NCBI GenBank assembly: GCA_964649615.1
Contig: CAZYPW010000001.1
Location: 33,557 to 97,556 of the forward strand
Length of the DNA: 64,000 nt
Reading direction: 5' to 3'
Source: an uncultured Gammaproteobacteria bacterium
Lineage (GTDB): Bacteria > Patescibacteriota > Microgenomatia > Daviesbacterales > UBA10151
Below are positions 1 through 18,974 of the stretch, in pieces. Each line of letters begins with the position of its first letter. Within the stretch, counting starts at the first letter, position 1. The translations under genes and the position numbers were made by a program. Under the pieces are notes generated by a model. It worked only from the letters and a program-made list of their open reading frames with translations, did not search any database and was not told where the DNA came from.

Positions 1-708
1 TAGGGAAAGTGGTTAAAGCCAGTTGTGTTTGTTTAGGTTTTTCCGGAACAATCACCTTGACAGAAGCTTTAGTTATCGCTGGGGGAGGAGCAATAGACGC
101 ATCTACTGTTTCCAGTTTTTGTTTGATGCCTGAGGCTTGAGTGACTAAACCCTGCAAATCAGATAAAGCCTTATTAACCTCTTGGCTATAATTAGGAGAC
201 AGGGTATGAGGGTTTTGAGCAGCTTGTTTGATTTGGGACAGTTGCCTTTCTGTCTGGATAATTCTCATCTGTAAATTCTGGGCTTGTTTGGCTAAATCAA
301 CAGTTTGTTTTAGTTCTTGATGGGAAGGCAGATCAGCAGGAGCAGCTGGCTGGATGGGTTTGGCAGTCTGCTGGATCGGTTGAGGAGCTGAAGGGCTGAC
401 ACTCGGAACCCTGGACATCCCCGACATGTACGTTAAATACCTGCTTTTAAAAAGTGGCTCATCTTGATAGGTTTTATCCCCTTTTTCCCAAATCCTCTTA
501 GTGGGAGAATAAACAGCCTTAAAAAAAGCAATCACCCATTGGTCTAGCGGACGGGCCTGAATAGGCAAAAAAGCAAAAGCTGCACCTAAAGATGCAGAAA
601 TTATTATTAAGGGCCAGCTGATTAAAGGATATCTGCTGGAAGCAAAGACAAAGAGCAGATAGGCAATGCTTGAGCCAGTAGCAAGATAAATAAACTGTTT
701 GAGGGTCA
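1..708 (-). CDS. 5'-partial at the window edge (N-terminus at 708): membrane protein with two N-terminal TM helices and a Q/A-rich coiled-coil tail. Possibly part of the pilus/T4SS-like locus.
   Basis: An open frame on the minus strand starts at ATG (706-708) and runs off the window start. It is missing from the ORF track because it has no stop inside the window. Its translation begins MTLKQFIYLATGSSIAYLLFVFASS..., with a second hydrophobic helix and then a coiled-coil region. Confidence 0.4.
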
Positions 709-861
709 TATCCCCTACCAGCTTAAATTGGAAGGTAGTTACATTTTGGGGCACAGGATGTTGTTCCATAGTATTTAATATATACATCGTGAAAAAAATG
801 ATGGCAAGCAGCACAAAACAGATCATTATAGGTCAAATATTTGCCACTTGAAAATTAAAGA

Positions 862-1074: not shown

Positions 1075-2538
1075 ATGCCAGAACAAGAAACGCTCAAACG
1101 TCCAGAAATTTCACCTCTTATTCAACCTCAAATTGACCCAGGAGGAAAACTGCAGCCTATTTCCTGGCTTAACGATACAAGAATTATACTTAGACCGGAT
1201 GACCGAATTTCCCACCTTGTAGAACCTCAAAGGACTCAAGAAATACCGGTTGCACCTGGATTAGGGAGAAACTCTATTCTTGAAAAAACAGACTGGAATT
1301 CTGAGTTAGAAATAACCACCCTTTTTAAAAACTACAACAGATATACGAAAGAAGGAAAAGCTCCGCAGGAGGCTCTGCAGTTTTCTTTGGAGGAAGTTGA
1401 AGCAAACATCAGAACCTTCACTTTGGAATTTATCCAGGCCAGGCTGGTGATTCCTTTTTTAGTCAGCCTAGATTCCTCATCTGAATATAGCATTCTGTCT
1501 AAATACGATAGCCGTCCTATTGTTTATAAAACCAGTGAACAAGAAAGATTAGGGGGGAATAAGGAAGCAATGATAAAAGTAGATGCTTTTATGAGAGATG
1601 CACCAGTTGGTTCAGTGGCTATTACAAATAGTTCTCCGGGGGAAACCGGCTGGTTTGATAGCCAGGGCAAAAAGATTATTTATGATGATAACCAGATGAC
1701 TTTTTACGTAAAAGATGAGAACAGTTTTTATGCTTTCACCATAGTTTCAGATTTAAATTATGACCAATCAAGAAGTTATTCCATTGGATTTGGTATTGAT
1801 GAAGTAAGGCTGAATGGTAGTACAGAGATGGAAAGAGTTTCTAACTTGGTGAGAAATCCAATTCTACTTTCCCGTCCCCAATCAGGGCAATCTCCAGTTG
1901 ATGATGCGATAAATAGAATCCTGGCCATCAGGGGAACAGGCATGATTAGAATCAAGAAAAAAGATGGTATACCTGAATATAAACCTGTTTCAGAGTTAGT
2001 GGAAGGTATTAAAAATAGAGAAAATATGCTTAATTTTTGTGAGGAAGCAGAGCAGGTAATCAGCCAGCTAAGAGTTTTTGTTTTTTCTCAAATAGATCAG
2101 TTAGGAGATTTTAGTATTCAAGAAACCATTTCTGAGGTGGTTGATAAAGCAATACTTGAAATTACGCGTATAAATCGTCCTAAAAGTTCCAAAACAGAGA
2201 TCAGAAAAGTTAGTCCCAGCAGCGCTGTTTATTTTAATAAACCCACTATAGCTTCATACACCCCAGATGTAGCAGAATGGATGCAAAGAGATTATAGAGG
2301 AGAAATTGCTTATTTAGAAAATCAAAAAGGATGTGCAGGAGGAAGTAGGATGGGGACATTTAGTATTGGTTCTTCTGCAGTAGTATCTTTTGGGGGAGTA
2401 TCTTCATCTGGAAGTAGGATTTTTAGCTTCGGATCTACCTCTTTGGAATCAAGTAAAAAAGGCAAAACCTGTGTTGGCTGTGGCGAGGTAAACTACTGTA
2501 CTAAAGATTGTTATAAATGCGGAGGGATGTTAATTTAA
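1075..2538 (+). CDS. Hypothetical protein with a Gly/Ser-rich, Cys-rich C-terminus (CVGCGEVNYCTKDCYKCGG).
   Basis: Long ORF from the track with no recognisable domain. The C-terminal CxxC...CxxC cluster is consistent with a Zn-ribbon-like tail. Confidence 0.5.
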   Translation: MPEQETLKRPEISPLIQPQIDPGGKLQPISWLNDTRIILRPDDRISHLVEPQRTQEIPVAPGLGRNSILEKTDWNSELEITTLFKNYNRYTKEGKAPQEALQFSLEEVEANIRTFTLEFIQARLVIPFLVSLDSSSEYSILSKYDSRPIVYKTSEQERLGGNKEAMIKVDAFMRDAPVGSVAITNSSPGETGWFDSQGKKIIYDDNQMTFYVKDENSFYAFTIVSDLNYDQSRSYSIGFGIDEVRLNGSTEMERVSNLVRNPILLSRPQSGQSPVDDAINRILAIRGTGMIRIKKKDGIPEYKPVSELVEGIKNRENMLNFCEEAEQVISQLRVFVFSQIDQLGDFSIQETISEVVDKAILEITRINRPKSSKTEIRKVSPSSAVYFNKPTIASYTPDVAEWMQRDYRGEIAYLENQKGCAGGSRMGTFSIGSSAVVSFGGVSSSGSRIFSFGSTSLESSKKGKTCVGCGEVNYCTKDCYKCGGMLI

Positions 2539-2653
2539 ACATTGACAAGGTTAGCTAAGTTAGACAATATAAAATCATGCAAACAGTTAGCCTTACTCAA
2601 ACAAAGATAAATTTTTACTAAGCAGGGAAAACCAGTGGTAAAGCTAGAAACTT

Positions 2654-3025
2654 ATGGCAGAAGTAACGAATTTGACAAATCGTAAGGTTTGTTATAATAT
2701 TAGAGATATGTTAAACACAAACATTGTTTCTATAGATGAACTTCGTTCTAACCTGGCTGATATTATCAACCGCGTAACATATGCTAATGATAAGGTAGTG
2801 GTTAAAAAGTACAACCGGGAAGCAGCTGTTCTTATCAGTTTGGATGAATACGAAAAGCTTTTGGATCCTAGGAAGAGGTTAAGCAAGACTGCATGGGAAA
2901 AAAGTTTCAAAAAACTTGATAAAATACGAGCTAGAATCCCTAAAATGGACCCAGTAGAATTAGATAAAATTATTGATGAGGAGGTGGAAGTGGTTAGGGC
3001 AGAGAAAAGGGCTAGAGGTGAATGA
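2654..3025 (+). CDS. Phd/YefM-family antitoxin.
   Basis: N-terminal IVSIDELRSNLADIINRV...VVVKKYNREAAVLISLDEYEKLL matches the Phd/YefM fold. It overlaps the downstream PIN gene by 4 nt (ATGA). Confidence 0.65.
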   Translation: MAEVTNLTNRKVCYNIRDMLNTNIVSIDELRSNLADIINRVTYANDKVVVKKYNREAAVLISLDEYEKLLDPRKRLSKTAWEKSFKKLDKIRARIPKMDPVELDKIIDEEVEVVRAEKRARGE

Positions 3026-3450
3026 TTCGAACAGTATTAGACACGAATACTTTAGTTAGCGCTGTTATCAACATTGGATCGTCTGTAGCTGCTGAGATTT
3101 ATCAAAATTGCAAAGATAATCACTTTGTACTGGTAATTTCTCCACAAATTTTGTCAGAGCTTGATGAAGTTTTGCATCGAGAAAAAGTGATAAAAGCCCA
3201 CAAAAGATCTGATAAAGAGTTACAGGAGATAATGAACGGATTATCCAGAGTCAGTTTATCTGTCACCGGTAATTTTAGAATAGAAGTAGTAAGAGATCCA
3301 TCAGATGATAAAATTCTTTCAGCAGCGCTTGAAGGGAAAGCTGATTATATTGTCAGTAGAGATAGAGATTTACTTGACCTTAATCAATACCAAGGGATTA
3401 AAATTATCACCCCCGAAGAATTTATGGGAATTCTTAGAGCAAATAAATAA
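3022..3450 (+). CDS. PIN-domain toxin (VapC-like).
   Basis: VLDTNTLVSAVIN...DDKILSAALEGKADYIVSRDRDLL carries PIN acidic-residue motifs. It is translationally coupled to the upstream antitoxin. Confidence 0.7.
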   Translation: MIRTVLDTNTLVSAVINIGSSVAAEIYQNCKDNHFVLVISPQILSELDEVLHREKVIKAHKRSDKELQEIMNGLSRVSLSVTGNFRIEVVRDPSDDKILSAALEGKADYIVSRDRDLLDLNQYQGIKIITPEEFMGILRANK

Positions 3451-3603
3451 TCCAAGCTCAATCCCGTCAGGATTATGTTAGTTTTTAATCAAGCTACTTT
3501 ATAACTTTTTTAGTAAGATAGACTCGTCAAGTAAGTTGACACAAAGTTTGGGAAATTCTATGCTGGATAAAGGCCATAGAATTTTTCCAAGAAAGGAAAA
3601 TAT

Positions 3604-6600
3604 ATGGCAGAAAGAATTATGGCAGATGCAGGGATACCAACAGAAGGAGCTTCACCAACAGAGCCAGCAACTGGTCCATCTCCAGAAGCAGGTGTTCAAC
3701 AGTCTGTCAAATCAGTTGGTTTTTTGGAAGAATACGACCCAAGTAAAAATTATACTTTTAGGCAAGAAGGCATTTACTCTGTTGCTGTTGATCCGCAAAC
3801 AGGTAAAGAAGTAGCCAGAGTACCAAGAATAGAAGGAGGAGCTTTACCTAATTGGCTTAAACCGTTCAGCCCTACTTTTAATAGTTTTTTTCAAGATTAC
3901 ACTAGAGTTTCAAAAGAATTTGCAGAAATAGAAGCTGTTCCTCGCCAGCATGTTCCGCGTCCCCACCGCTTTGAGTTTCATGCAATGTATGATCAACGGT
4001 TTAGGGAGTTTCATAGAGTTAAAACAGGCGTTGACCAATTTGTTGATAGTGCTTTGCAAAGAGGGCTTCTACATTTTGTTATTAATGATTTAAAAGCTTT
4101 GCATGTGCGTGCAACTCAACGTGTTAGCCGCTCAGAATTTGGATCTGAATCAGCTTCAGACTGGCAAGCTGAGCTGCGCAATTTTGCAGAAGGAGGCTAT
4201 AAGGAAACATTCTGGAATTATGGAGACGATGTTTTAAGAGCAGTATTTGGCAATATTCCCATAACAGTATTGCGTGAACAGTATGAAGGTGTAGGAGCTT
4301 TTGTAGCCTCCAAAATAGCAATTGCTTTAGAAAAAGACCTCAAAGGAATTGCTTTATCACCAGGCGAACTAGGCGATAGAATTTTTAGAGAGATAAAGGA
4401 AGATCGAAATCGGGCAGAAGAAAGAAGAAGAGAAAGAGCTACTGCTGATGAGATGTTGACATATAGTGATTGGAGAGAACGCTTTGATTTTAACTGGGCG
4501 CAAACCCCTGAAGAGCTGGAACTTTCCGTTTTTGCCTGGCTGGAGAAATTTGTGGCCCATTTGCCAGAAGCCACAATAGAAGAACTTAACAATGAATCAC
4601 TTACCTGGAAACGCAATGCTGTCAGTGCTCTGGAAAAAGCAGCTAACAGGTTGCGTATTTCAGAAAAAGACCCTTTTTATAAAGAACTAAAAGGTACAAT
4701 TGAGGGATATGTTGAGGTGCTCCGGGGAGTAAAGTTTTTGGAAACAGATGGTGGAGCCGAAGCCCACACGGTTGCCCTGGAAGAATTTGCCCATAATTTT
4801 AATGAAAAGCATGATGCTATTTATTTAGGCAATGCCAAATCTGCCATTATTCAAGCCTTTCTTGCCAAGCATAAGAATATTGCGATGGGAGATGATGGAA
4901 ATATTGAGAAGCCTCAATTCGGTGATATAGAAGATTTCAGGGGGAATATAGAAGAGCAGGCCAAAAGATATGCAGCAACCCATGAATTATATATCAGACC
5001 AGAAGATTTTGAGGAGAGAAGGATACAAAATAACGAGGGTTACGGGTGGGATGATGTAGTTGAGGAATTATTGCTTGTAGATAGTAGAGGTATGGCTCAA
5101 GCAGCTGTTTTAACAGATCCTATTGCTCAGGCAGAAGCTATAGTAAAAGTAGCTACCAGGACAGGTGTATTCAAAAACATAAAAGAAAGGTTAGACAAAG
5201 AAGAAGGATTTGACAGCTTGACTGTAGATCAAAGAAGGGATGTTATCAGAGACAGGATAAAAGCCAAGATTAGCCTGGCAGGTAATCAGCAGTTGCTCAG
5301 TGAAATTAATGCCATGAATCAAACAGAAGCTGACCAGGCATTATGGAAATACGTAAGAGATTTTAACCGAAAAATGGAAAGCCAGGGCCATAGGCTCTGG
5401 TTCCCCAGTAACTGGGATACAGTTAGATTAAGCATTAATAGGTCAACTAAGTTAGTAGACAGGGTTTTATCTGAAGAAGAACTGGAGGCCATGATAGAAG
5501 AAGTCAGCCCTTTTGTTATAGGTGGTAAACCAATTATGATTGATAAATTAACCCCTGAACAGATTGAGGCAGAAATAGCAAAAATAGCCGGGTTAAGTAC
5601 TACACAGAAGAGAGAACTACTGGAAGATGCTTTATTTGATAAACAACAAAGAGAAACTGAGGCAGAGAGGGCCTTTAATATCAATAGAGCTTATCAAAAA
5701 TTCTTAGGAGTGGATGCTAGGTGGGGCGGTATGGCTGTCAGAGTAGTTAATGATGATGGAGAGGTAGTACTAAGAAACGTCTGGGATATAGCACAAGAGA
5801 TATTGAAAGCCAAGATTGATGCAGAAGAGGCAGTTATCGAAGCCCAAGTGATTACCCACGAGGCAGCATTAAGAGCAAGAGGCGGATTAACAGCTGCTGA
5901 AATAGAGAAAGCAGTAACTGAAAGAAGAAGAATGTTAAGGCGGGATTCCACATTTGGCGCTACCTTAGCCTTAAGAGAAATAGGCATTGCTAACGATTTG
6001 CCAATCTGGAATTACTATTATTACAATGATCCTCAACGCATTCAAACTTTTGCCCCACTTGTAGGATATACCCATAATGATAAGACAGAAATAATAGAAC
6101 TTTTAGATAGGGGCAGAAGAGAAATGAGGGCGGTTTGGGATTATCTGGCAGATACTTATATGGATGGTAAAATCTTAATGGTAAAAGATGAACCAAATGT
6201 AACAGTAGATGCAAGCGGCCAGCCAGCAAATTTCCATCAAGAGAGAATGGATCGGGCAAGGGTCATTAATGAGGCTGGTGTATCAGTTTTAAGAGAAGTA
6301 TTTGAAGCCAGGTTTCAGCTTTCAACCAGTGGTGGAGTAGAAGTAGTTGACCTAATTTCCAGGGTAGGAGATTTAGGAATATATGATTTGCTTTGGGAAA
6401 TGGGGTGTAAGGATTTTAGGGAGTTTCAGGGATTTATTAAAAGAAGAGATGAAGTGGAGCTAAGAAAACAAAGTTTTTGGAATATCAGACAGTGGAGGGA
6501 CCCAATTACTTATGCAAAAAGGTTACGAGGGGCACATGCTGCCAGGCCATACCTGACAGGAGGAGATGTCAAAGGACAACGCAAACCTGGCTTGCTTCAG

Positions 6601-7377
6601 GAACCAATGATGGGTGCTTATAAATTTAGAGATGCGTTTGTTGATAGAAATAGCTGGGGAGGTAGTGGAAGCAGTGAAATAAAAAATAAAATAGATCAGA
6701 CTAACAGCGAGTTTAAGAAAGTACTCCAAGAGATTCTTGAGAATGATGGGAATTTTGCGAAATTAACTGTGCAAGAGCAAGATAAAGTGGTCGAAACAGG
6801 AGCTGGCATCTTAAGCACCCTGATAGAATATATGGAGGCTCTAAGGTATAAGATGAACAGAGCCGGGCTGGCTCCCAAAAATTGGAAATTGGACAATGAA
6901 TTAATATTTAGGCATTATGCCATAGAATTGTTAAAGAGGGCTCCATTACCAGGCAAAGCAGAAATCTTGGGAGGGGGTGAAAAGTTAGGAGATCAGGATT
7001 TAGGTTATGCTGTACAAGGCAGAAGTAAGTTGGCTATTAAGATATATGAAAATATTTTAAGAACCAGTTCTTACCATATTCTAGTGGGAAAAGACCGTCA
7101 AGTTTTTGATGATAAAGGTGTGGAGATTAAAGCAAGGATGGATACTGAACGAGCAAGGATACAGGCACAACCGTTAACTCCTGAACAACAGAACAGAGTT
7201 AATGCAAGAAGGACTTATCTAGCCTCTCTTAATACCACACCAGATATGCTAAATGAGGAGATTGCTAGATTAGAAAAACACTACAGGGAAGAAAGGCTCC
7301 ATAAAGAATTTGTGGGAGAGTGGCCAGCTAAATTAGCAGAAGCTGCCGAGCAATTACTACCGTTAAAACTTGGGTAA
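3604..7377 (+). CDS. Very large (1257 aa) soluble protein of unknown function; charged and coiled-coil rich.
   Basis: Uninterrupted ORF with no TM segments and no motif I recognise. It lies immediately upstream of the pilus/T4SS-like locus. Confidence 0.6.
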   Translation: MAERIMADAGIPTEGASPTEPATGPSPEAGVQQSVKSVGFLEEYDPSKNYTFRQEGIYSVAVDPQTGKEVARVPRIEGGALPNWLKPFSPTFNSFFQDYTRVSKEFAEIEAVPRQHVPRPHRFEFHAMYDQRFREFHRVKTGVDQFVDSALQRGLLHFVINDLKALHVRATQRVSRSEFGSESASDWQAELRNFAEGGYKETFWNYGDDVLRAVFGNIPITVLREQYEGVGAFVASKIAIALEKDLKGIALSPGELGDRIFREIKEDRNRAEERRRERATADEMLTYSDWRERFDFNWAQTPEELELSVFAWLEKFVAHLPEATIEELNNESLTWKRNAVSALEKAANRLRISEKDPFYKELKGTIEGYVEVLRGVKFLETDGGAEAHTVALEEFAHNFNEKHDAIYLGNAKSAIIQAFLAKHKNIAMGDDGNIEKPQFGDIEDFRGNIEEQAKRYAATHELYIRPEDFEERRIQNNEGYGWDDVVEELLLVDSRGMAQAAVLTDPIAQAEAIVKVATRTGVFKNIKERLDKEEGFDSLTVDQRRDVIRDRIKAKISLAGNQQLLSEINAMNQTEADQALWKYVRDFNRKMESQGHRLWFPSNWDTVRLSINRSTKLVDRVLSEEELEAMIEEVSPFVIGGKPIMIDKLTPEQIEAEIAKIAGLSTTQKRELLEDALFDKQQRETEAERAFNINRAYQKFLGVDARWGGMAVRVVNDDGEVVLRNVWDIAQEILKAKIDAEEAVIEAQVITHEAALRARGGLTAAEIEKAVTERRRMLRRDSTFGATLALREIGIANDLPIWNYYYYNDPQRIQTFAPLVGYTHNDKTEIIELLDRGRREMRAVWDYLADTYMDGKILMVKDEPNVTVDASGQPANFHQERMDRARVINEAGVSVLREVFEARFQLSTSGGVEVVDLISRVGDLGIYDLLWEMGCKDFREFQGFIKRRDEVELRKQSFWNIRQWRDPITYAKRLRGAHAARPYLTGGDVKGQRKPGLLQEPMMGAYKFRDAFVDRNSWGGSGSSEIKNKIDQTNSEFKKVLQEILENDGNFAKLTVQEQDKVVETGAGILSTLIEYMEALRYKMNRAGLAPKNWKLDNELIFRHYAIELLKRAPLPGKAEILGGGEKLGDQDLGYAVQGRSKLAIKIYENILRTSSYHILVGKDRQVFDDKGVEIKARMDTERARIQAQPLTPEQQNRVNARRTYLASLNTTPDMLNEEIARLEKHYREERLHKEFVGEWPAKLAEAAEQLLPLKLG

Positions 7378-7392: not shown

Positions 7393-9174
7393 TTAAGGCG
7401 ATTTTCTTTTCCACTTAAGAGGATTCCAGGGTGAAGCACTTCGATCTATGAATGTTCCTATACCGGGTTTCGTAGGACCATATTCGAATCCTCCAGTGCC
7501 AGGGTTAAGATAGTATCCCTTCTCTCCAAAAATATTCTGTTTAAACATTCCCCCTTGGCCACGAATAGCACCTGCTCCTTGTTCATAGTATCCTCTACCA
7601 CCCCTGATACCTCCTGATACTTCCTGTCCAATTAATTGTCCTGCCTGGCCCATTTTACCAATAGCGCTGACAATTATATCCGGAATTTTAGGCAATGCCA
7701 TTAAAGCTCCAAAAGCCAGTAAAATCTTAATAAATCCTAAATCTAAACCTCCAAACAAAGGGAAAGCAGTACCCTCTACAATATTAATTTTATCTGCGGC
7801 ATATACCGCTGGGACAAAGCTACTTTCTTCCATCTGGTTTGATTGAGTTACTTTAAGGGGGCCACCATAATCCTGACCCATTAAAAAGGCTACGAAATAA
7901 AATACAGCTAAAACAGCAGGAAATACTAAGATATTAGCAAGCAGCTTCAGCATCCAGCCGGTAGCAATGCTCTGCCTGCCTGGTAAAGCAGCTGCTAAAA
8001 AATGAAAAGGGGCACTAATTGTTAGGAAAATAATTGTTAAATAACTAGCGAGTAAACGCAAAAGCAGTTTTAACATCTGATATATTAGGGCAAAGGTGGC
8101 GATAAAACTTAACATCAATCCTACCCATGTGGTAGGAAAAGTAGCCACTGTTACCCCAGCAACTAGATTTATTAAAGGACTGGCAATCAGCCCATAAGGA
8201 GGAGGGATAGCTCCTGACAAGGGACTGATAAGTTGAGCACTAATAAAACCTGCCAGCAGCCTGATATAAAATTGAGTTTCACCGTTCATTTTCTCTAGGA
8301 TAGCGCCTAAGGCTTTAGAGGCATCATCCCAGGTAATGATATTTAGGAAGGGGCTAAAAATACTCAACATACTCTCAACAGAGATATGTTGTACTAGGTT
8401 TGTTCTTTGGGGATCATCTAGCTCATTTTGAGCAGCAGCAAAGAAATAACCCACAGCATTTGTGCCTATAAAAGCCGTATCTGAGATAGCTGCTGCCATA
8501 AAGTAACTGAATGTGATAAGGATCAGACCAAGTACTAATCCTGGTAATGCAGCCTGTGCTGTGATTACAGTTTGAGGATTAATTCTATTTCTAAACATTA
8601 CCATTAACCCAATAACTACAAAGATAATCACCATAATTAAGTAAGCTATATTTCTTGACACTTCCCAAAGTCTCAATACTGGATCTAAAACCCTAGCTGC
8701 TGATCCTACTACTTGAGCATTAACGGGTTTTACTATGCCAAATCCCTTTCCCACATAAGCTATATAATTGACTGTTCTAACAGGAGGATTGGTATACAAA
8801 GCAGTAATTAAGGAAGTTGTTGAACCTAATACCCCTCCTGATAAATCAACTTGGGATAAAACCGGTACCCCGGAAACATAAGTTAAACAAGGCTGGCCAA
8901 TTACAGATTGGCCAATCCCTAAACAAGAAAAAGTATGAAACATATTATGGATTAAAAGATCAGTGTAGATGGGAGAGGTGGGGGAGATGGTAGATGGTAG
9001 ATGGTAGTTGGTAGTTGGTAGTGGAGAAGCAGAAGGGGTAGATGTCTGAGCATGGATAGGAGTAGCATAAAGCGTAAAAGTTAAAAGGCAAAAGGTAAAA
9101 GTCAAAAATGCAAGTAAAAAGTAAAAAGTTTTTAGAAATTTTGAATTTTGAATTGTAATTTTGACATTTGACAT
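7393..9174 (-). CDS. Polytopic membrane protein; VirB6/TrbL/CedA-like candidate channel component.
   Basis: N-terminal signal peptide, then a ~130-aa exported segment, at least 6 TM helices, and a Gly-rich C-terminal tail. It sits directly adjacent to the tandem pilin-like genes. Confidence 0.4.
   Translation of the reverse strand: MSNVKITIQNSKFLKTFYFLLAFLTFTFCLLTFTLYATPIHAQTSTPSASPLPTTNYHLPSTISPTSPIYTDLLIHNMFHTFSCLGIGQSVIGQPCLTYVSGVPVLSQVDLSGGVLGSTTSLITALYTNPPVRTVNYIAYVGKGFGIVKPVNAQVVGSAARVLDPVLRLWEVSRNIAYLIMVIIFVVIGLMVMFRNRINPQTVITAQAALPGLVLGLILITFSYFMAAAISDTAFIGTNAVGYFFAAAQNELDDPQRTNLVQHISVESMLSIFSPFLNIITWDDASKALGAILEKMNGETQFYIRLLAGFISAQLISPLSGAIPPPYGLIASPLINLVAGVTVATFPTTWVGLMLSFIATFALIYQMLKLLLRLLASYLTIIFLTISAPFHFLAAALPGRQSIATGWMLKLLANILVFPAVLAVFYFVAFLMGQDYGGPLKVTQSNQMEESSFVPAVYAADKINIVEGTAFPLFGGLDLGFIKILLAFGALMALPKIPDIIVSAIGKMGQAGQLIGQEVSGGIRGGRGYYEQGAGAIRGQGGMFKQNIFGEKGYYLNPGTGGFEYGPTKPGIGTFIDRSASPWNPLKWKRKSP
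9089..9163. repeat. Left arm of a ~75-nt inverted repeat; encodes KITIQNSKFLKTFYFLLAFLTF in the 593-aa membrane protein.
   Basis: Its reverse complement is nearly identical to 13915-13990. Confidence 0.85.
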
Positions 9175-9229: not shown

Positions 9230-9538
9230 TTAAGGTTTGCACCAATCAGTGCCACCAAAGTTACATAAAATTCCAATATTAAAAGAAGTTACCTCAACTC
9301 CTGTGGCTATTTGTATGAGCTGTAGTATCAGCCACCCTACTGCCATAAAAACTATGCCTAAGAGTGCCCAGGTAATGGTCATTTTGGCAGCTTCCAAGTT
9401 TTTAGGGTCTCCACCTGACCTTAAATATTTATATCCTGCAAAAGTAATCATCACAAACATAGTAATAATCCCCAAGCCTACAATTGAGGAAATGATGCTA
9501 TTTAAAATATCTTGTATTTGTTGTAATCCAGCAGGCAT
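9230..9538 (-). CDS. VirB2/TrbC-like (T4SS-type) pilin paralog.
   Basis: Small two-TM protein with the conserved loop AGYKYLRSGGDPKNLEAAKMTITWALLG, which is shared with its neighbours. Confidence 0.5.
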   Translation of the reverse strand: MPAGLQQIQDILNSIISSIVGLGIITMFVMITFAGYKYLRSGGDPKNLEAAKMTITWALLGIVFMAVGWLILQLIQIATGVEVTSFNIGILCNFGGTDWCKP

Positions 9539-9589
9539 ATATCTAAAGTAACACTATATCAAATACGATGGTATATATAAATTAATTAA

Positions 9590-9964
9590 TTACGGAGCGG
9601 TAGGTATGGTAATCTTTGTTAGGCCACCGCTAAATCCTAAGAATTCAGCTGCCACATTTGCCAAAGCAAAAGCCACTGCCAAAACTGCCAGCCCAATTAG
9701 GGCATTAACTATTTTACTTCTGGCTTTGCCAACAGCTTCTTTATCTCCGCCAGAAGTAATCCAATCAAATGCTCCCCATACCAGATAGATTAATACTAAA
9801 AGTAAGGCCACAGCAAAAGCCAGTTGTATAACATTACCTATAAATACCCCTATATCTTTATAGCCTTGGGTAGGGGCTTGAATATTAAGATCAAAAACAG
9901 CATAAGCACTGGCTGCTGCAATAAAATAAGTTACAGCAGAAGAAACAATGGCTAATTTTTTCAT
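9590..9964 (-). CDS. VirB2/TrbC-like pilin paralog.
   Basis: Signal peptide, then TM, then the motif LVWGAFDWITSGGDKEAVGKARSKIVNALIGL, then a second TM. Confidence 0.55.
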   Translation of the reverse strand: MKKLAIVSSAVTYFIAAASAYAVFDLNIQAPTQGYKDIGVFIGNVIQLAFAVALLLVLIYLVWGAFDWITSGGDKEAVGKARSKIVNALIGLAVLAVAFALANVAAEFLGFSGGLTKITIPTAP

Positions 9965-10017
9965 TACTTATTTAAGTATATCTCTATTAAAAATATCTTG
10001 TCAAGTCCCGGTTAATT

Positions 10018-10455
10018 CTATCTGCAATCTGCTGCTTCTTCACCAGGGAAACAAATTCGTTTACAACTTTTAGAAGATGAATCATATGAGTATCCAGGTG
10101 AACAAGAGTTTGTGGAGAAGAAGCTAAAGCCTGTAAATTTCCCAAAAACTGCAATTATGGCAAAAGCTGCTGCAAATAAAAGTATGCCGATCATGGCATG
10201 GATGATCTTTTGTTGGGCTTGTTGGACTTTTTCCTTTTGCCCTTCAGAAGTAATCCAATCAAATGCTCCCCAAAGGATCATAAAAAGAAAAAATACTGCT
10301 GCTACAGCATAGATCAGCCCTATCAAATTACTGAAAAATTTGCTTATTCCTGTTGCCCCACTTAGATTTCCTTGTGTGAAAGGATCTAATTCTGGTGGCG
10401 GTTTTATGGCACCAAATATATCTTTAAAATCTGCAGCCAGTTTCATATTAGCCAA
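10018..10455 (-). CDS. VirB2/TrbC-like pilin paralog with a Cys-rich C-terminal tail.
   Basis: Carries the motif ILWGAFDWITSEGQKEKVQQAQQKIIHAMIGIL. The C-terminus is ...CSPGYSYDSSSKSCKRICFPGEEAADCR. Confidence 0.55.
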   Translation of the reverse strand: MANMKLAADFKDIFGAIKPPPELDPFTQGNLSGATGISKFFSNLIGLIYAVAAVFFLFMILWGAFDWITSEGQKEKVQQAQQKIIHAMIGILLFAAAFAIIAVFGKFTGFSFFSTNSCSPGYSYDSSSKSCKRICFPGEEAADCR

Positions 10456-10843
10456 TTAATCTTAACCCAGTTATACCAAACAATCTAGCAAGTAAAAATT
10501 GTAAAATCAAAAATGAGAGCATTAACAATATAAAGCCAATTAAAGAATGGATAATCATTTGTTTGGCGCTTTCAATATCTTCTTTATTTGCCCCAGCCTT
10601 CATGTATTTAAAAGCTGCTATTAGAAAATAAATCACCACCAATACTGTAGCTATTGAGAAGATAGCAGGAACCAGCCTTGTTGTCCCCTCGCCTAAAGTG
10701 GTAATATCCCTAAAACCAAAATCTTTACCCAAATCTATTGGATCTGGAGCTTGTGCAGAAGCATAAGGAGTGTAAAGTGTAAAAGTTAAAGTGTAAAGTG
10801 CTATTATAGTTTTTACTTTTAAGTTTTTACTTTTAAGTTTCAT
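10448..10843 (-). CDS. VirB2/TrbC-like pilin paralog.
   Basis: Signal peptide followed by ...LIAAFKYMKAGANKEDIESAKQMIIHSLIGF, with the same two-TM architecture. Confidence 0.5.
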   Translation of the reverse strand: MKLKSKNLKVKTIIALYTLTFTLYTPYASAQAPDPIDLGKDFGFRDITTLGEGTTRLVPAIFSIATVLVVIYFLIAAFKYMKAGANKEDIESAKQMIIHSLIGFILLMLSFLILQFLLARLFGITGLRLIG

Positions 10844-11179
10844 TTAAAATGGTGTTTGCCCCCCTGTTTTGACAAAAATCTCTGTGGCAAACCTGGTGAT
10901 AAAATAAGCCAAAAAGATCACCATTAAGCCTACCAAAGCCCAGGTAATTCTGGACCTGGCTTTGGCTAAATCTTCTTTTTTGCCTCCTGCTAAGATATAT
11001 TGGTATGCTCCCCAGACCAGGTAGAAAAAAGTTAGAAAAAGCATGATATAAATGGTGATATTAACTAAAACAGATACAAAACTGCTAAGATTGATAAATT
11101 CTGGTTTTAAACCAGAAGGAGTAGGGATAGGCTGGGTTTGTCCTGGTAAGGTTAGTGCTAATAAAGATTTAAGATTCAT
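10844..11179 (-). CDS. VirB2/TrbC-like pilin paralog.
   Basis: Carries ...YLVWGAYQYILAGGKKEDLAKARSRITWALVGL. Confidence 0.5.
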   Translation of the reverse strand: MNLKSLLALTLPGQTQPIPTPSGLKPEFINLSSFVSVLVNITIYIMLFLTFFYLVWGAYQYILAGGKKEDLAKARSRITWALVGLMVIFLAYFITRFATEIFVKTGGQTPF

Positions 11180-11234
11180 GATTCAATTATAGCTTAAAGC
11201 TTAGAACGTAAAGTGTAAAGTTACAGTTTAAAAC

Positions 11235-11603
11235 TTAAAGTTTCCTTTTCCCTTTTAAAGTAAGTAAGCTTGCTCCTAAAATATTTGCAAGTTCTTTCGT
11301 TTCTGTTAGTAAAATATTAACTTCGTTTTTATCAGTATTGGTTCCATCTCGTAATATTCCAAGCCAGTACTTAGTTTCATTAGCACTCTTAAGGGCAATA
11401 GCATAAAAATTAATGAAATCTTTCTTGCTTGATGCAGCTTGTGCCTCAATAATATTGGCTCCTATAGAGGTAGCAGCTCTTAATAGCTGATCAGATATTA
11501 CCCAGAAAATTCTTTCATTAGGTAACTTAGTCACAAATTGCACTATCCTAATGGAAAAAGTATATGCCCGGTACTTTAGTTGTTCCTTGTTATTGTTATT
11601 CAC
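11235..11603 (-). CDS. Four-helix-bundle protein (23S rRNA intervening-sequence protein family).
   Basis: YRAYTFSIRIVQFVTKLP...ISDQLLRAATSIGANIIEAQAASSKKDFINFYAIALKSANETKYWL is the characteristic sequence of this family. Confidence 0.7.
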   Translation of the reverse strand: MNNNNKEQLKYRAYTFSIRIVQFVTKLPNERIFWVISDQLLRAATSIGANIIEAQAASSKKDFINFYAIALKSANETKYWLGILRDGTNTDKNEVNILLTETKELANILGASLLTLKGKRKL

Positions 11604-11666
11604 AGATTTAACTTTTTAGTTGTAGTTTTGCGCTTTAAGTTTTACGTTTTACACTTAAATCCCTAT

Positions 11667-12815
11667 TTATTTACAGCTATCAAATCCTGGTATGCACAGT
11701 ATATCAACCCCAATAATTTTTAAAAGTAAGGTAGCAAAGATTACAAACAAAAGCCCAATGATAGCTGAGGTAAACCTATCCCTGCCACCCTCCAATCTCT
11801 CTGGGTTACCAGCAGATGAGATCATCTGAAATGCACCTACAAGCATCAGTAAAAAGGCAAATCCACCAGAGATAGCTACCAGAAATGTTAAAAGATCTTT
11901 GATAAAACTAATCGGGTTGGTGTGGATACAACCAATAGCTGTGGCAATTGCTGGATCTTCATCAGTTCCACACGGTTTTGCTCCTGCTAGGGTACATTTA
12001 CTGGGGTCGGTACAGTGAGGGGTTATAGGTGCGCCAGGAACCACAGGAGCAATAGAGGCAGAAGGGTTTGGTGTAGACGGAGTTGTGGCTGTGGCACTAA
12101 TTTGGATTGGCCAAAAACACTGATGAAGCGGAGCAAGCTTATAAATTCGCAGATTATATTTATACCCAATCTCTCTTGATAAAGTTAAGTTTGTAAAAGC
12201 ACCCTGACCTGTGCTGCCGGTCTCAGTAGAAGCCAAATCAGGATCTCTTCGGCTACTTACATTAAAATCTTGAATTTTATATTCAGTGTTAGCCAATCCT
12301 AAGAATTTGATATCAAACGGAGTATTTGGTTGAATTGTACTTGGGGGTGGAGGAGATAAACCTATTGTACATCCTCCGGTAGCCCCTATCTGGTAGGAAA
12401 TTTGCGAGCAGAAATCTTGATAGTCACCACTTGCATTAGGTTGCCAATACAATTCTCCTGTGAATTTTCCAGCTTCAATAAGAGAGTTTGTTCTAAAACC
12501 CAATTCACTCCCCCTAATAGTTAAAGAAAATTTATTACCTGAAACAGTTACAGATTGTGTATCATAATCTCCAAGATGAGCGTACCACGCACTGAAGTGT
12601 AAACTAACTGATTTACCATTTAAGAGTGCTAACGTAGCTGGATCATTGATTGTAAAATTAAAAGTTAAATCAGTTGTACCTTCTGGAAAATATTTAGGAT
12701 CATAAGTAATGTTAACAGTGGGTGCAGCGCAACTATCTGAAGCTTGCACAACTGGTATGAATGTGTTGAAGAGAGTCAAAAGACCAATAATTCCAAAGAT
12801 AAAAAGTCTGGACAT
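11667..12815 (-). CDS. Secreted 382-aa protein with a large N-terminal extracellular domain and a C-terminal pilin-like two-TM domain; candidate tip or adhesin pilin.
   Basis: Signal peptide. The C-terminal 70 aa (LLMLVGAFQMISSAGNPERLEGGRDRFTSAIIGLLFV) is homologous to the small pilin paralogs. Confidence 0.5.
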   Translation of the reverse strand: MSRLFIFGIIGLLTLFNTFIPVVQASDSCAAPTVNITYDPKYFPEGTTDLTFNFTINDPATLALLNGKSVSLHFSAWYAHLGDYDTQSVTVSGNKFSLTIRGSELGFRTNSLIEAGKFTGELYWQPNASGDYQDFCSQISYQIGATGGCTIGLSPPPPSTIQPNTPFDIKFLGLANTEYKIQDFNVSSRRDPDLASTETGSTGQGAFTNLTLSREIGYKYNLRIYKLAPLHQCFWPIQISATATTPSTPNPSASIAPVVPGAPITPHCTDPSKCTLAGAKPCGTDEDPAIATAIGCIHTNPISFIKDLLTFLVAISGGFAFLLMLVGAFQMISSAGNPERLEGGRDRFTSAIIGLLFVIFATLLLKIIGVDILCIPGFDSCK

Positions 12816-12897: not shown

Positions 12898-13587
12898 TTA
12901 GGATTTAGTTTTATGGTTAGGCTTGATTTTTAATAACAGATTGCGCGAAAGATTCTGATAAAATTGTATGAAAGCTTTTTTATCAAAAGCAGCTTTCATT
13001 TTTGGCAGGGTTTGCATTTTATCTGCATCTGCAATTACATTTGCGAAATAAAATTCCGATAAACCAGTATCTTTTTGCTTTGCCAATTGAAAGATTTTAT
13101 TAAATGATAATTCTGTTTGTATACAAATCATATAAAGATCAATATAATCCTTAGGCTCCAGCCGTCCGAAGACTGCAAGTACCTTATTTGTCGCAATATT
13201 AATAAGTGAATCAATCCTGATGCTGTCAATGGTTTGTATCTTGCCAAAATGTTTAGGTTGTTCTTGAACAATGTCGATTTTTTGCATCCAGCCCTCTTTT
13301 TTATTCTCCAGAAAGATCTCATTATATGTTTGAGAACGGATATGAATTGTTAGTTTAGAATTTGTTTGGCTGGCAATTTCCTGCATAGTAGTACGGAGAG
13401 TAAGGGTATCAAACGGCTCCAGGCTAAAAAAATCTAAATCCTGGCTTTCACGGTGAGCGAGATAAAAAGCCGAAAGAGCAGTACCACCTGTCAGGAAAAA
13501 AGGTCTGGCAAATGGTGAGGAAAAGAATTTTAACAAAAGCGTTGTTTGATGTGGGTATAGGATCTGGTTGTTTTGTAACCTATACAT
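12898..13587 (-). CDS. AbiEii-type nucleotidyltransferase toxin (DUF1814).
   Basis: Motif FFLTGGTALSAFYLAHRESQDLDFF. The start is assigned to the MYRLQ ATG at 13587 so that it does not overlap the upstream small gene. Confidence 0.65.
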   Translation of the reverse strand: MYRLQNNQILYPHQTTLLLKFFSSPFARPFFLTGGTALSAFYLAHRESQDLDFFSLEPFDTLTLRTTMQEIASQTNSKLTIHIRSQTYNEIFLENKKEGWMQKIDIVQEQPKHFGKIQTIDSIRIDSLINIATNKVLAVFGRLEPKDYIDLYMICIQTELSFNKIFQLAKQKDTGLSEFYFANVIADADKMQTLPKMKAAFDKKAFIQFYQNLSRNLLLKIKPNHKTKS

Positions 13588-13870
13588 GGTAGCCCCAAAC
13601 ATTAAGCGCCCGTTGCCATGCCCGTTTAATATTGATTGGTAAACGTAATTTTGGGAAGATTTTAACAATATCATTTACTGTAAGATATCTCCATATATCT
13701 TTAAATTGCGCATGGGTTAATATCCGTGCTACCAGCCAGGATTTTTCCGTAGTATTCTTGCTATGTAAAATATTTCGTACTTGTTTTTTATTAAGATCAT
13801 AATCCCAAAGAAAATATAGTTTATTCATGGTTAAATAATACCACAATTTGTCATTTTGGACATTATCCAA
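13580..13870 (-). CDS. Small protein encoded immediately upstream of AbiEii; candidate cognate antitoxin or partner.
   Basis: Operon-like tandem arrangement: its stop is 5 nt upstream of the AbiEii start. No domain recognised. Confidence 0.35.
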   Translation of the reverse strand: MDNVQNDKLWYYLTMNKLYFLWDYDLNKKQVRNILHSKNTTEKSWLVARILTHAQFKDIWRYLTVNDIVKIFPKLRLPINIKRAWQRALNVWGYHV

Positions 13871-13903: not shown

Positions 13904-15658
13904 TTGGAGACCATGTTTCACTGCAAAATTACAATTCAAAATTCAAAATTTCTAAAAACTTTTTACTTTTTACTTGCATTTTTGACTTTTATTTTTTGCC
14001 TTTTAACTTTGCCTGTCTATGCTGATGAGCTTGAAGATATTAAAAACCAAATTAATGAGCTAAATCATGCCAGGGAATTATCTGTTTCTGCCACCAAGCC
14101 CTTGGAAGGGCAACTGGAGGGCTTACAAAGGCAGCTAGCCCAAATTCAAGCCAGTTTAGACCATATAGCTTTAACTATTGCCCAAAAGCAAAAAGAGCTG
14201 GATTTAAGGGAAGATAAACTAGCCCTGCAGCAAGCCCTTTTAGAAAAAAGAGTTAAAGCCTACTATATCCGCTCATATCTCTCAGATCCACTGGTGGTGA
14301 TTTTATCCTCATTCCAATCAGGAGATTTATTTAGGGAATTGTCTTACCGCCAGACTGTGGCCAGGGAAGATAAACAAGTCATCTCCTCCATTACCAGCCA
14401 GGTGGTGGATTTATTAAATCAAAAAGAAAAATTAGAACAAGATAAAGCTAAACTGGCTTCTTTGCAAGCAGAGGTAGACAAAAATGCGAAGTTTTTGGGA
14501 GGGGAGGTTAAAAAGGCCAAGACTTATCAGGAAGAGCTTTCCTCTAAAATTGCCCAACTTTCTGCCCGCCAGCAACAAATTATCTCTCAAAGGCAAGCCT
14601 CCTTAAACTTGCCTACCTCTTTGGGAGCAGGACCACTCTTTTGTACTGATGATAGAAAGCTGGACCCGGGATTTTCTCCAGCTTTTGCTTTTTTTACTTT
14701 TGGCATTCCTCATCGGGTGGGGATGAATCAATATGGAGCTTTGGGTAGGTCTCAAGCAGGCCAATCTGCAGAGCAGATTTTGCAGGCCTATTTCCAAGAC
14801 TTTTCCTTTGAGCAAAGGCCAAATATCAATATTTCTGTCCAAGGTTTTGGTTCTATGCCTTTGGAAACTTATTTATTAGGCATTTATGAGATGCCAGATT
14901 CCTGGCCAATAGAGGCTTTAAAAGCTCAAGCTATTGCTGCCCGCTCCTATGCCCTTTCCTACACTAACAATGGTTCTAAAGAAATTTGTACTACTCAAGC
15001 CTGCCAGGTTTATAAAGGAGGCAATAAGGGAGGGAATTGGGAAAATGCAGTCAAACAAACTGAGGGTAAAACCATGGTTTCAGGAGGTTCTGCTGTTTCT
15101 GCCTGGTATTCTTCAACTGATGGAGGATATACCTATTCATCTTCAGACGTGGGTTGGAGTTCCCGCTCTTTTACTAAAAGGGTCAGAGATACCAGTGGAG
15201 ATATATCCTCATTTGAGGATCTTTTTAGCAAAAGTTATGATAAAGATTCACCTTGTTTTTATGCAGCCCAAGGTTTTAGGCCTCAATATGCCAAGAGTGC
15301 TTGGTTGAAGAGTGAAGAAGTTTCAGATATTGCTAATGTAATCATGCTTTCCAAAAGAGATAGTTCTGTTTCATCCCATATCTATCAAACAGATAAACCA
15401 AATCCAGAGGGGACTGAGACTTGGAATGAAGATAAAGCCAAACAAGAATTAAGGAATAAAGGGGGTTCACCATTTAACAGTGTTTCAGCAGTTTCTGTGG
15501 GGGTAGATTTTTCCTCAGGACAGGTAACTTCTGTAACTGTGTCTGGAGATAGAGGGCCAGAGACCTTTAACGCTACAGAATTTAGAAACTTTTTTAACCT
15601 TAGGGCTCCAGCTAATATTCAAATTGTAGGACCGTTGTTTAATATAGAAAAAAAATAA
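13904..15658 (+). CDS. Secreted coiled-coil protein with a C-terminal SpoIID/LytB domain (a peptidoglycan lytic-transglycosylase-type hydrolase).
   Basis: Signal peptide, then ~200 aa of heptad-rich sequence. The C-terminal domain reads IEALKAQAIAARSYALSY...CTTQACQVYKGG...AWYSSTDGGYT (SpoIID/LytB signature). Confidence 0.7.
   Translation: METMFHCKITIQNSKFLKTFYFLLAFLTFIFCLLTLPVYADELEDIKNQINELNHARELSVSATKPLEGQLEGLQRQLAQIQASLDHIALTIAQKQKELDLREDKLALQQALLEKRVKAYYIRSYLSDPLVVILSSFQSGDLFRELSYRQTVAREDKQVISSITSQVVDLLNQKEKLEQDKAKLASLQAEVDKNAKFLGGEVKKAKTYQEELSSKIAQLSARQQQIISQRQASLNLPTSLGAGPLFCTDDRKLDPGFSPAFAFFTFGIPHRVGMNQYGALGRSQAGQSAEQILQAYFQDFSFEQRPNINISVQGFGSMPLETYLLGIYEMPDSWPIEALKAQAIAARSYALSYTNNGSKEICTTQACQVYKGGNKGGNWENAVKQTEGKTMVSGGSAVSAWYSSTDGGYTYSSSDVGWSSRSFTKRVRDTSGDISSFEDLFSKSYDKDSPCFYAAQGFRPQYAKSAWLKSEEVSDIANVIMLSKRDSSVSSHIYQTDKPNPEGTETWNEDKAKQELRNKGGSPFNSVSAVSVGVDFSSGQVTSVTVSGDRGPETFNATEFRNFFNLRAPANIQIVGPLFNIEKK
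13915..13990. repeat. Right arm of the inverted repeat; encodes the same signal-peptide residues in the SpoIID-like protein.
   Basis: See the left arm. Confidence 0.85.
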
Positions 15659-15694
15659 AGTTAAAAGTCAAAAGTTAAAACTCAAAAGTGTGGT

Positions 15695-15722
15695 AGTTCT
15701 GCCCTGCAGAACTTTTTAATTT
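15695..15722 (+). terminator. Rho-independent terminator (AGTTCTGC-CCT-GCAGAACT stem followed by TTTTTAATTTT).
   Basis: Perfect 8-bp stem followed by a T-tract, directly after the stop at 15658. Confidence 0.6.
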
Positions 15723-15748
15723 TAAATTGTAATTTTGAGTTTTGCATT

Positions 15749-16339
15749 TTGAGTTTTGAAATCAAAAAGAGTATACTCCTTTTTGCCATGTTTCCTTCTT
15801 ATGTAGAAAATCCAGAGAATTGCTCATTTGAAGGCCAGGATCCCCAAGAAAAAATACTGCTTCTTTTAAGGGCTCATCCAATAACTAATTTAAGCTGGAT
15901 TATTCCCGCGATATTACTCTTTTTCCTGCCTTTTGTGATAGGTTTAGCTTTGAGCTTTTTTTCTATTCCCCCAAATATTATTCCAGAGCCTTTTGGGCTG
16001 GTTTTTTTGCTATTTAATTTTTTACTAATCATGTCCATTGTTTTTGAAGGTTTTTTATATTGGTATTTTAATGTGTATATAGTAACTAATAAAAATATTA
16101 TTGATATAGATTTTCACTCCATTCTTTACAAAAACATTGATGTTGCCCCTCTGCGCAACATAGAAGATACCCAATCCTCTATGATAGGGATACTGCATTC
16201 TATTTTTCACTATGGCCATGTTTATATCCAAACTGCAGGAGCAGCCAGAAATATAGATTTAGTTGATGTGCCCAGACCCCATCATGTGGCTGATTTTATC
16301 TTGGATGAATCACATAAAATTTATGGAAATATCCAGTAG
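15749..16339 (+). CDS. Membrane-anchored bacterial PH-domain protein (bPH_2/DUF304-like).
   Basis: Two TM helices, then a segment matching the YdbS/YdbT-type PH domain pattern (...YIVTNKNIIDIDFHSILYKNID...IQTAGAARNIDLVDV). Confidence 0.5.
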   Translation: MSFEIKKSILLFAMFPSYVENPENCSFEGQDPQEKILLLLRAHPITNLSWIIPAILLFFLPFVIGLALSFFSIPPNIIPEPFGLVFLLFNFLLIMSIVFEGFLYWYFNVYIVTNKNIIDIDFHSILYKNIDVAPLRNIEDTQSSMIGILHSIFHYGHVYIQTAGAARNIDLVDVPRPHHVADFILDESHKIYGNIQ

Positions 16340-16358
16340 TTTTAATTTTTTAAATTCG

Positions 16359-16559: not shown

Positions 16560-16630
16560 AGAGTTAAGAGTTATTAGTTCGGAGTTCGTAGAAAAATATC
16601 TACCTACTACGAATTAAAACGAAGCGTATT

Positions 16631-18933: not shown

Positions 18934-18937
18934 ATAT

Positions 18938-18969
18938 TTGCTTTTAGGCTCAGAATATGGTAATATAAT
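18938..18969 (+). promoter_or_regulatory. Sigma70-like promoter for ssrA: TTGCTT, 17-nt spacer, TAATAT(AAT).
   Basis: Read from the sequence. The -10 element ends about 8 nt before the tmRNA 5' GGGG. Confidence 0.4.
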
Positions 18970-18974
18970 GCAAT

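Follow-up and report, generated by a model that had tools for sequence, protein, structure and literature searches.

Two genes of an uncultured member of Candidatus Daviesbacteria, which belongs to the Microgenomatia in the Patescibacteria or candidate phyla radiation (CPR), encode proteins of 487 and 1257 residues that very probably constitute a dedicated, conserved and lineage-specific module of the Daviesbacteria type IV secretion system (T4SS) cluster. They lie near the start of the stretch of DNA analysed here (the window), which covers 64,000 nucleotides of contig CAZYPW010000001.1 from position 33,557 to position 97,556. The initial annotation had pointed to two very large proteins with no recognisable domains. 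The size holds for the 1257-residue protein but not for its 487-residue neighbour; the lack of domains holds for both, as neither has a match in Pfam, NCBIfam, PHROGs or PADLOC. The pair is previously undescribed as far as the available portions of the relevant papers go, and its host system is the recently described Patescibacteria T4SS of the MPF-FATA-like type.

The gene order around the pair is strictly conserved. It runs from a cell-wall enzyme, VirB4, a TraC-like protein (PF26593) and PrgI on the minus strand to the 487-family and large proteins on the plus strand, followed by a VirB6-like protein and pilins, again on the minus strand. We found the full order in the window, L003/L007, L004/L005, L006, L008, L009, L010, L015 and L018 and part of it in L001, L002 and L016, i.e. 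in 12 distinct loci overall. The window itself is cut at PrgI, and VirB4, recognised by the P-loop_TraG/AAA_10/DUF87/CagE_TrbE_VirB signatures, is two genes past PrgI in all syntenic loci; the prgI orthologues of L003, L004, L006, L010, L015 and L018 are followed by the TraC-like and VirB4 genes. With its PrgI, TraC-like, VirB4 and PF18895 proteins, the locus is a chromosomal MPF-FATA-like Patescibacteria T4SS cluster. The cluster adjoins dnaA/dnaN in L003 and L015, in agreement with the published Patescibacteria T4SS clusters (PMC12102498).

A link between the two proteins and a secretion or pilus locus had been proposed from the window, and it turned out to be stronger than anticipated. Wherever the flanking DNA extends far enough, a relative of the 1257-residue protein is preceded by a 487-family gene and followed by a VirB6-like gene and a T4SS_pilin array, so that the suggested co-occurrence with pilin arrays holds throughout; no homology of the large protein to a housekeeping protein was detected in our searches. 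The relative positions of the genes required correction. The pair had been placed immediately upstream of the locus, but it is part of the T4SS cluster itself, in the interval from PrgI to the VirB6-like gene. The partial gene at the left edge, which was thought to point the same way, offers no long frame on the plus strand. A member of the PrgI/VirB3 family, it lies on the minus strand, diverges from the 487-residue protein gene and is translated from an ATG at 787 or 769.

The large gene is present in one copy per cluster, in a fixed slot abutting the virB6-like gene. The two are convergent in all loci, with 2-20 bp between their stop codons (15 bp in the window, between 7377 and 7393). This gap leaves no space for a terminator, and convergent transcription or antisense overlap is likely. 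Scanning for promoters and terminators was uninformative, as promoter counts were close to the shuffled expectation.

The Phd/PIN toxin-antitoxin pair that had been taken as a boundary of the two genes is indeed present (Phd PF02604, E 2.7e-11; PIN_3, E 6e-21), but it sits between them as a variable insertion. The slot is empty in L003, L009, L010 and L015, and it contains differing cassettes in L001, L002, L004, L006 and L018. Those seen comprise Phd/PIN_3, Phd/PIN, MazE/PIN with HicAB, DUF5678 and 23S_rRNA_IVP. Because the slot is either empty or variably filled, the Phd/PIN pair of the window is a later arrival in what was ancestrally a unit of two genes. More generally, intergenic slots of the T4SS cluster repeatedly take small selfish or accessory cassettes that differ between relatives. 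They are found at 2654-3450, 11235-11603 and 12898-13674 of the window and in the same slots of L001, L002, L004, L006, L010, L015 and L018, and they include Phd/PIN_3, 23S_rRNA_IVP (an Avd-like four-helix protein, in the pilin array), AbiEii, MazE/PIN, HicAB and DUF5678. A Replic_Relax gene (PF13814) is located within the pilin array of L009 (13737-14714, minus strand); genes of the relaxase type are generally absent from such clusters.

We compared rates of evolution as pairwise identities, component by component, over one shared set of loci. VirB4 proteins are 81-87% identical, PrgI proteins 57-66% and the VirB6-like proteins, whose orthologues occupy the same position in all loci, 47-62%. 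The one-to-one orthologous pilins (five short pilins compared with L003, L004 and L015) share 42-67% identity. The 382-residue pilin-domain fusion has a full orthologue in L004 only (51%), and its best matches in L003 and L015 (34-39%) are paralogous pilins. For the 487 family the values are 24-54%, and for the large protein they range from 61% down to undetectable similarity. Judged by pairwise identity, the pair is thus the fastest-evolving part of the cluster, beyond even the pilins. Furthermore, the tree of the 487 family is incongruent with those of the large protein and of VirB6: between L003 and the window, the large proteins are 61% identical and the 487-type proteins 25%. The rates estimated from these alignments speak more for a role as a substrate or in host interaction than for one as a rigid scaffold.

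The large protein (143.6 kDa, isoelectric point 5.5, a single Cys) is highly charged and soluble, as had been noted. Charged residues make up 30.6% of it (Asp and Glu 16.4%, Lys and Arg 14.2%), and with a maximal 19-residue Kyte-Doolittle score of 1.03 it has no transmembrane segment. An open reading frame (ORF) of 1257 codons has a chance probability of ~e^-80 at ~40% GC and ~6% stop codons. In-frame ATG codons are found at 3604 and 3619, and the gene might start 5 codons downstream of the first one. An N-terminal ‘ER(x)1-3 MAE’ sequence recurs among the homologues with variable spacing; it may be a translated Shine-Dalgarno sequence, with the true start at the second Met. The variable spacing fits this explanation better than a functional N-terminal peptide, which we rejected. 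The AlphaFold2 model of residues 58-1257 (predicted local distance difference test, pLDDT, 73.3; predicted template modelling score, pTM, 0.69) is almost wholly alpha-helical.

Seventeen homologues of 1245-1654 residues and 37-70% identity were retrieved from the word-indexed database, and all the named ones are from Daviesbacteria. Repeating this search with the family profile yielded the same 17 proteins. The word index misses true members, such as the 47% identical protein of L004, and hence the size of the family is underestimated; synteny alone revealed further relatives in L004 (47%), L008 (43%) and L018 (30%). Scanning contigs with back-translated patterns of the family, which are narrow, detected 2 Daviesbacteria loci only. 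Over 100 columns are invariant among the 17 homologues, many of them Arg. Conservation is highest in residues ~800-1000 (e.g. LPIWNYYYYNDP, STSGGVEVVDLIS, GFIKRRDE), where model confidence is lower (pLDDT 50-78). By contrast with this core, the N-terminal ~200 residues vary and contain many indels. The C-terminus is conserved (...LHKEFVGEWxARFA), and we recognised in the family no C-terminal T4SS signal of a known type. In L004 (12107-16094) the large gene is interrupted by a stretch of unknown residues or by a stop, leaving pieces of 1204 and 133 residues; the interruption reflects a gap in the assembly or the onset of pseudogenisation.

The large proteins of the syntenic loci fall into at least three groups: G1, the window family; G2, with L010 (1377 residues) and L015 (1385 residues), 33% identical to each other; and G3, with L009 (1588 residues). 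BLAST and hidden Markov model searches detected no similarity between the groups. Weak co-linear matches obtained with hhalign (best probability 16%, E 1.6e-3) were not accepted as homology, although these profile alignments are suggestive of a very distant relationship between G1, G2 and G3. All three groups share a length of 1200-1600 residues, 15-18% Asp and Glu, 13-17% Lys and Arg, 0-4 Cys, and, at the N-terminus, ‘MAE’ ahead of a disordered segment rich in Pro and Glu.

The 487-residue protein is encoded by a real ORF with the Cys-rich C-terminal tail reported for it (...KTCVGCGEVNYCTKDCYKCGGMLI). It is soluble (isoelectric point 5.4), and its maximal hydropathy score of 1.45 corresponds to no segment of transmembrane strength. 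Its AlphaFold model (pLDDT 63.6) predicts a structured core at ~55-418, a disordered Gly- and Ser-rich linker and a small C-terminal ribbon. An exhaustive profile search collected 364 representatives of the family at 50% clustering, 241 of them at E <= 1e-10, nearly all of 400-500 residues. The family is defined by E118, E157-R158-x-G160, S186-P187-x-G189, T222 and an invariant Gly-Cys pair, G419-C420. Residues 421-462 beyond this pair are rich in Gly, Ser and Phe and predicted to be disordered; they are followed by a four-Cys CxxC...CxxC ribbon. Among 139 members, 95-99% retain its C466, C469, C479 and C482. The only His of the protein is not conserved. With two CxxC knuckles, the tail qualifies by sequence as a C4 zinc ribbon and may bind zinc. 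Autoprocessing of the intein or Hedgehog type at the invariant Gly-Cys was rejected because the ~65 residues that follow are too few for a Hint domain.

Not all members of the 487 family are linked to a T4SS. The T4SS-linked subfamily occurs in Daviesbacteria-like genomes, while more distant members (E 1e-21 to 1e-37) were found in L013/L014, L017, L019 and L020 in surroundings that contain housekeeping genes but no T4SS; their neighbours are L25/RuvC, ComF/SmpB, genes of glycolysis or DsbA. The link thus concerns only the closer subfamily. Broad alignments of the family were too divergent for pattern scanning.

Comparison of the window with L001 revealed a replacement confined to the tail. 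On either side of the ribbon-coding segment the two DNA sequences are ~85% identical, on the 5' side up to ~codon 460 of the 487-family gene. The segments themselves, of ~72 nt in the window and ~106 nt in L001, are unrelated. Identity returns directly past the stop codon, in a putative promoter-like palindromic element (TTGACAAGGTTAGCTAAGTTAGACAATATAAAA). Ribbon segment and element together span 2461-2574 in the window and ~1480-1640 in L001. The window tail is of type A (CxxCGEVNYCTKDCYKCGGMLI), and that of L001 is of the type ‘GSLYFNCPFC...CQHC...C’. Proteins that have exchanged the ribbon segment are 67-70% identical, and type A tails that are ~85% identical are carried by bodies of 24-39% identity. 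At least five distinct tail types exist in the family. Judging from these alignments, the zinc-ribbon tail is a discrete, exchangeable cassette. It resembles C4 ribbons such as those of eL43 and eL37 and the C-terminal finger of Fpg in having two CxxC pairs ~10 residues apart at the extreme C-terminus, but the 400-residue body that bears it has no known relatives. Approximately 20 of 150 family representatives (P0027-P0175) end in -AA (KAA, LAA, SAA and others), which is reminiscent, in sequence, of the ends of ssrA-like ClpXP degrons. Many other representatives end exactly at the last ribbon Cys.

We looked for known identities of the two proteins. Scanning 17 large-family and 75 small-family members yielded zinc-ribbon matches in the tails and nothing else. 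Sequence-profile searches of the PDB gave nothing for the large family and, for the 487 family, non-significant zinc-ribbon or zinc-knuckle matches in the tail only; the weak profile similarity of the tail is to the zinc ribbons of eL43, Fpg and eL37 (E 0.006-0.05). Foldseek searches of the PDB with the large model retrieved only generic alpha-solenoids at a TM-score of ~0.1. A HEAT/ARM alpha-solenoid was rejected, as the matches to importin-beta and HUWE1 had TM-scores of 0.07-0.10 and E values of at least 1.8e-3, and tandem repeats were not found. Profile-profile self-comparisons likewise uncovered no repeat units, nor is any domain common to the two families in such comparisons. Plasmid, phage and IMG/VR collections contain no relatives of either protein. 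An origin from a phage or plasmid and a function in anti-phage defence were thus rejected, given also the absence of PADLOC and PHROGs matches.

Neither protein has a signal peptide, a transmembrane segment or an LPxTG motif. A VirD4/TcpA coupling protein was discarded for lack of a Walker A motif and of Pfam matches in both proteins, and a HUH/MOB relaxase for lack of an HxH motif and of Pfam or NCBIfam matches. A VirB8/PrgL-like protein was rejected as well, since its N-terminal transmembrane helix and NTF2-like domain were not found. For a polymorphic toxin with its immunity protein, no toxin domain was detected with Pfam or PADLOC, and no immunity ORF fits because the convergent virB6-like gene directly follows the large gene. 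Neither protein is among the components described in the accessible portions of PMC12102498, PMC10633639 and PMC12857230, or mentioned in the passages retrieved by a wider literature search.

Table 1. Features of the window discussed in the text
Feature	Coordinates	Strand	Basis
PrgI/VirB3-family T4SS gene, 5' part, running off the window start	1-787	-	PF12666 PrgI, E 1e-8
Gene of the 487-residue protein	1075-2538	+	ORF; family without a Pfam model
Gly-Cys and predicted disordered linker of the 487-residue protein	2329-2460	+	Alignments; pLDDT <50, residues 418-462
C4 zinc-ribbon-like tail (CxxC...CxxC), swappable cassette	2461-2535	+	Cys conservation; DNA comparison of the window and L001
Putative promoter-like intergenic element with TTAGCTAA palindrome	2542-2574	+	Near-identical in the window and L001
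Phd/YefM antitoxin (2654-3025) and PIN_3 toxin (3022-3450)	2654-3450	+	Pfam/NCBIfam
Gene of the 1257-residue protein (group 1 large protein)	3604-7377	+	ORF
Best-conserved core of the 1257-residue family, residues ~800-1000	6001-6603	+	Conservation profile, invariant columns
593-residue polytopic protein, VirB6-like by position and topology	7393-9174	-	~8-10 hydrophobic segments
Five VirB2-like T4SS_pilin genes and 382-residue pilin-domain fusion	9230-12815	-	PF18895
23S_rRNA_IVP gene interrupting the pilin array	11235-11603		Within the 9230-12815 array
781-residue VirD4/TrwB-like coupling-protein candidate	46306-48651	+	PF10412 TrwB_AAD_bind, E 3e-5; DUF87, E 3e-5; weak

The other genes of the window complete this picture (Table 1). 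The 593-residue protein has no Pfam match to VirB6, TrbL or PrgH, and its position is conserved. The 382-residue fusion (11667-12815) combines a large N-terminal domain, with a signal-peptide-like start and several Cys residues, with a C-terminal T4SS_pilin domain; it is possibly a pilin of the pilus-tip or adhesin type. Only one gene of the window codes for a protein resembling a coupling protein, ~39 kb away from the cluster, in line with the literature, which describes such genes as usually not close to virB4 in Patescibacteria. Downstream of the pilins (13904-20146), a neighbourhood of SpoIID, bPH_2, a ~600-residue unknown protein, SmpB and a ComF-like protein recurs in L017, where a distant 487-family member adjoins ComF and a VirD4-like gene adjoins SpoIID. 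Lastly, a stretch of lower GC content (0.32-0.35) at ~30800-45000 contains many small ORFs, a large serine recombinase (30885-32456) and an AAA_25 RepA-like ATPase (32892-34085). It is probably an integrated mobile element.

Secretion clusters may encode an effector together with its chaperone or adaptor, such as CagA and CagF in Helicobacter pylori or the adaptor-effector pairs of type VI secretion systems. Like CagA with CagF, the pair comprises a very large, fast-evolving protein with a novel fold and no Sec signal, encoded in the cluster beside a smaller, conserved cytoplasmic protein. Nevertheless, it has no sequence or structural similarity to CagA/CagF or to the type VI pairs; it is devoid of a translocation signal, a toxin domain and an immunity gene.

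The cluster has much in common with the MPF-FATA-like T4SS of Patescibacteria (Quinonero-Coronel et al. 2025, PMC12102498), including SEML1_0006-0019 of S. epibionticum (Wang et al. 2023, PMC10633639). The shared features are a cell-wall hydrolase, VirB4, a TrsD/TraC-like protein, PrgI/VirB3, a polytopic VirB6-like protein and an array of divergent VirB2-like pilins, as well as a chromosomal location beside dnaA/dnaN, the absence of a relaxase and a coupling-protein gene located elsewhere. VirB6 is described there as rarely recognisable in Microgenomatia (PMC12102498). No relaxase, in-cluster coupling protein, effector or substrate is reported for a Patescibacteria T4SS (PMC10633639, PMC12857230, PMC12102498). 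The main difference is in the interval between PrgI and the pilins. In S. epibionticum this interval harbours, on one strand, an NTF2-like protein and two ~1000-residue membrane proteins, the VirB6-like SEML1_0011 and SEML1_0013 (998 and 1088 residues), with ARM-repeat-like soluble domains (Wang 2023 Table S2, PMC10633639). In Daviesbacteria it is occupied by the oppositely oriented soluble pair, followed by a short VirB6-like protein. In the one system studied genetically, that of S. epibionticum, the two proteins have no counterpart. In extended VirB6 proteins (PMC12857230), too, a bulky hydrophilic helical portion is genetically coupled to VirB6, but the Daviesbacteria protein is separate and soluble, is encoded on the opposite strand, and has neither a transmembrane segment nor detectable homology to them.

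We tentatively favour an adaptor and cargo or effector module of the Patescibacteria T4SS. This reading is preferred because both proteins would be made in the cytoplasm and lack export signals, no coupling protein or relaxase is encoded in the cluster, the divergence is extreme and the tail is exchangeable. The pair is an ancestral two-gene unit, divergent from the prgI-traC-like-virB4 genes and convergent with the virB6-like and pilin genes. The acidic, all-alpha protein of 1200-1600 residues would be an effector-like cargo or host-interaction factor, diversifying so fast that the alleles of close relatives lose recognisable similarity. Its partner of ~450-520 residues might be a cytoplasmic adaptor or recruitment factor. 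The conserved N-terminal domain of the latter would hold the cargo, and its flexible Gly/Ser linker would present the exchangeable C4 zinc-ribbon as a docking module to the ATPase platform (VirB4/TraC-like), so that the adaptor would take the place of the coupling protein that the cluster lacks. A bolder version, which we consider rather unlikely as a whole, is that the large protein is translocated through the VirB2-like pilus into or onto the host, that the ribbon protein represents a new class of adaptor replacing the coupling protein, with cassettes tuning the docking, and that the divergence reflects an arms race.

Several observations speak against an adaptor and cargo module. In neither protein could a T4SS translocation signal, a toxin domain or an enzymatic domain be recognised, and a single copy in a fixed position abutting virB6-like also fits a component of the machine. 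With an hhalign probability of 16% between G1, G2 and G3, the slot could hold unrelated proteins. The incongruence between the 487-family and large-protein trees (25% versus 61% identity in L003) argues against tight co-evolution of an adaptor with its cargo. The distant 487-family members in non-T4SS contexts indicate that the fold is not intrinsically part of a T4SS. Lastly, fast divergence could result from weak constraint rather than positive selection, the closest DNA pairs being saturated for dN/dS.

In the main rival reading, the large protein would be a scaffold subunit of the T4SS, structural or cytoplasmic, with the 487-residue protein as an assembly factor. Together they would replace parts that are absent or not recognised in Microgenomatia, namely VirB8, the coupling platform or the large hydrophilic ARM-like domains to which the VirB6-like proteins of Saccharibacteria are fused. 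The large gene is always in one copy, in a fixed slot 2-20 bp from the virB6-like stop codon. The local VirB6-like proteins are short, with 527-615 residues versus 998 and 1088 in S. epibionticum. The predicted structure is large and all-alpha, with alpha-solenoids as its best, albeit weak, Foldseek neighbours, and VirB8 homologues are unrecognisable in most Patescibacteria (PMC12102498). However, the rate data argue against a scaffold, which we regard as a serious but less likely explanation. A role in handling nucleic acids, as an unconventional DNA- or RNA-processing or coupling module for uptake or export, appears improbable. In such a role, the zinc ribbon would bind nucleic acid and the Arg-rich conserved core of the large protein would bind phosphate backbones, in line with the weak similarity of the tail to nucleic-acid-binding ribbons (eL43, Fpg, eL37) and the many invariant Arg of the large family. 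Most Patescibacteria T4SS clusters have no relaxase, ‘very different relaxases’ being left open by the authors (PMC12102498), and a 2026 preprint proposes the acquisition of host RNA with possible T4SS pili. Nevertheless, neither protein has a HUH/HxH, Walker A or known nuclease or helicase motif, both are acidic (isoelectric points 5.4-5.5), the ribbon matches are non-significant (E at least 0.006), and nucleic-acid enzymes are not typically as hypervariable as the large protein.

Alternatively, both genes might be passengers in a recombination hot spot, similar to the toxin-antitoxin and IVP cassettes, with no role in secretion. The selfish cassettes collected in the slot between them, the incongruent gene trees, the swapped tail and the presence of distant 487-family members elsewhere in the genome are all compatible with this possibility. 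Nevertheless, the two genes are found in every locus examined, in constant order and orientation, even where VirB4 identity has dropped to 74%. Retaining more than 5 kb of coding DNA is a burden for small CPR genomes, there is no flanking transposase or integrase, and the plasmid, phage and IMG/VR collections contain no relatives, all of which makes mere passengers quite improbable. That the ORFs are annotation artefacts or pseudogenes is suggested by a single relative only, L004 with its split large gene. Given ORFs of 1257 and 487 codons, more than 100 invariant columns among 17 homologues of the large protein, 364 cluster representatives in the 487 family and a pTM of 0.69 for the large model, this possibility is negligible.

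The two families add to the protein repertoire of the Patescibacteria: the 487 family, which counts 364 or more clusters at 50% identity, and the large one, confined to Daviesbacteria-like genomes, match no solved fold in our PDB searches. No T4SS had been shown to be essential to its owner before that of S. epibionticum (PMC10633639, PMC12857230). On purely comparative evidence, the pair thus provides concrete candidates for what such an essential CPR T4SS recruits or transports. If the bolder version is true, the divergence of the large protein at VirB4 identities above 80% would record an arms race between host and symbiont. For this large and uncultivated branch of the bacteria, the pair offers candidates for both substrate and substrate recruitment.

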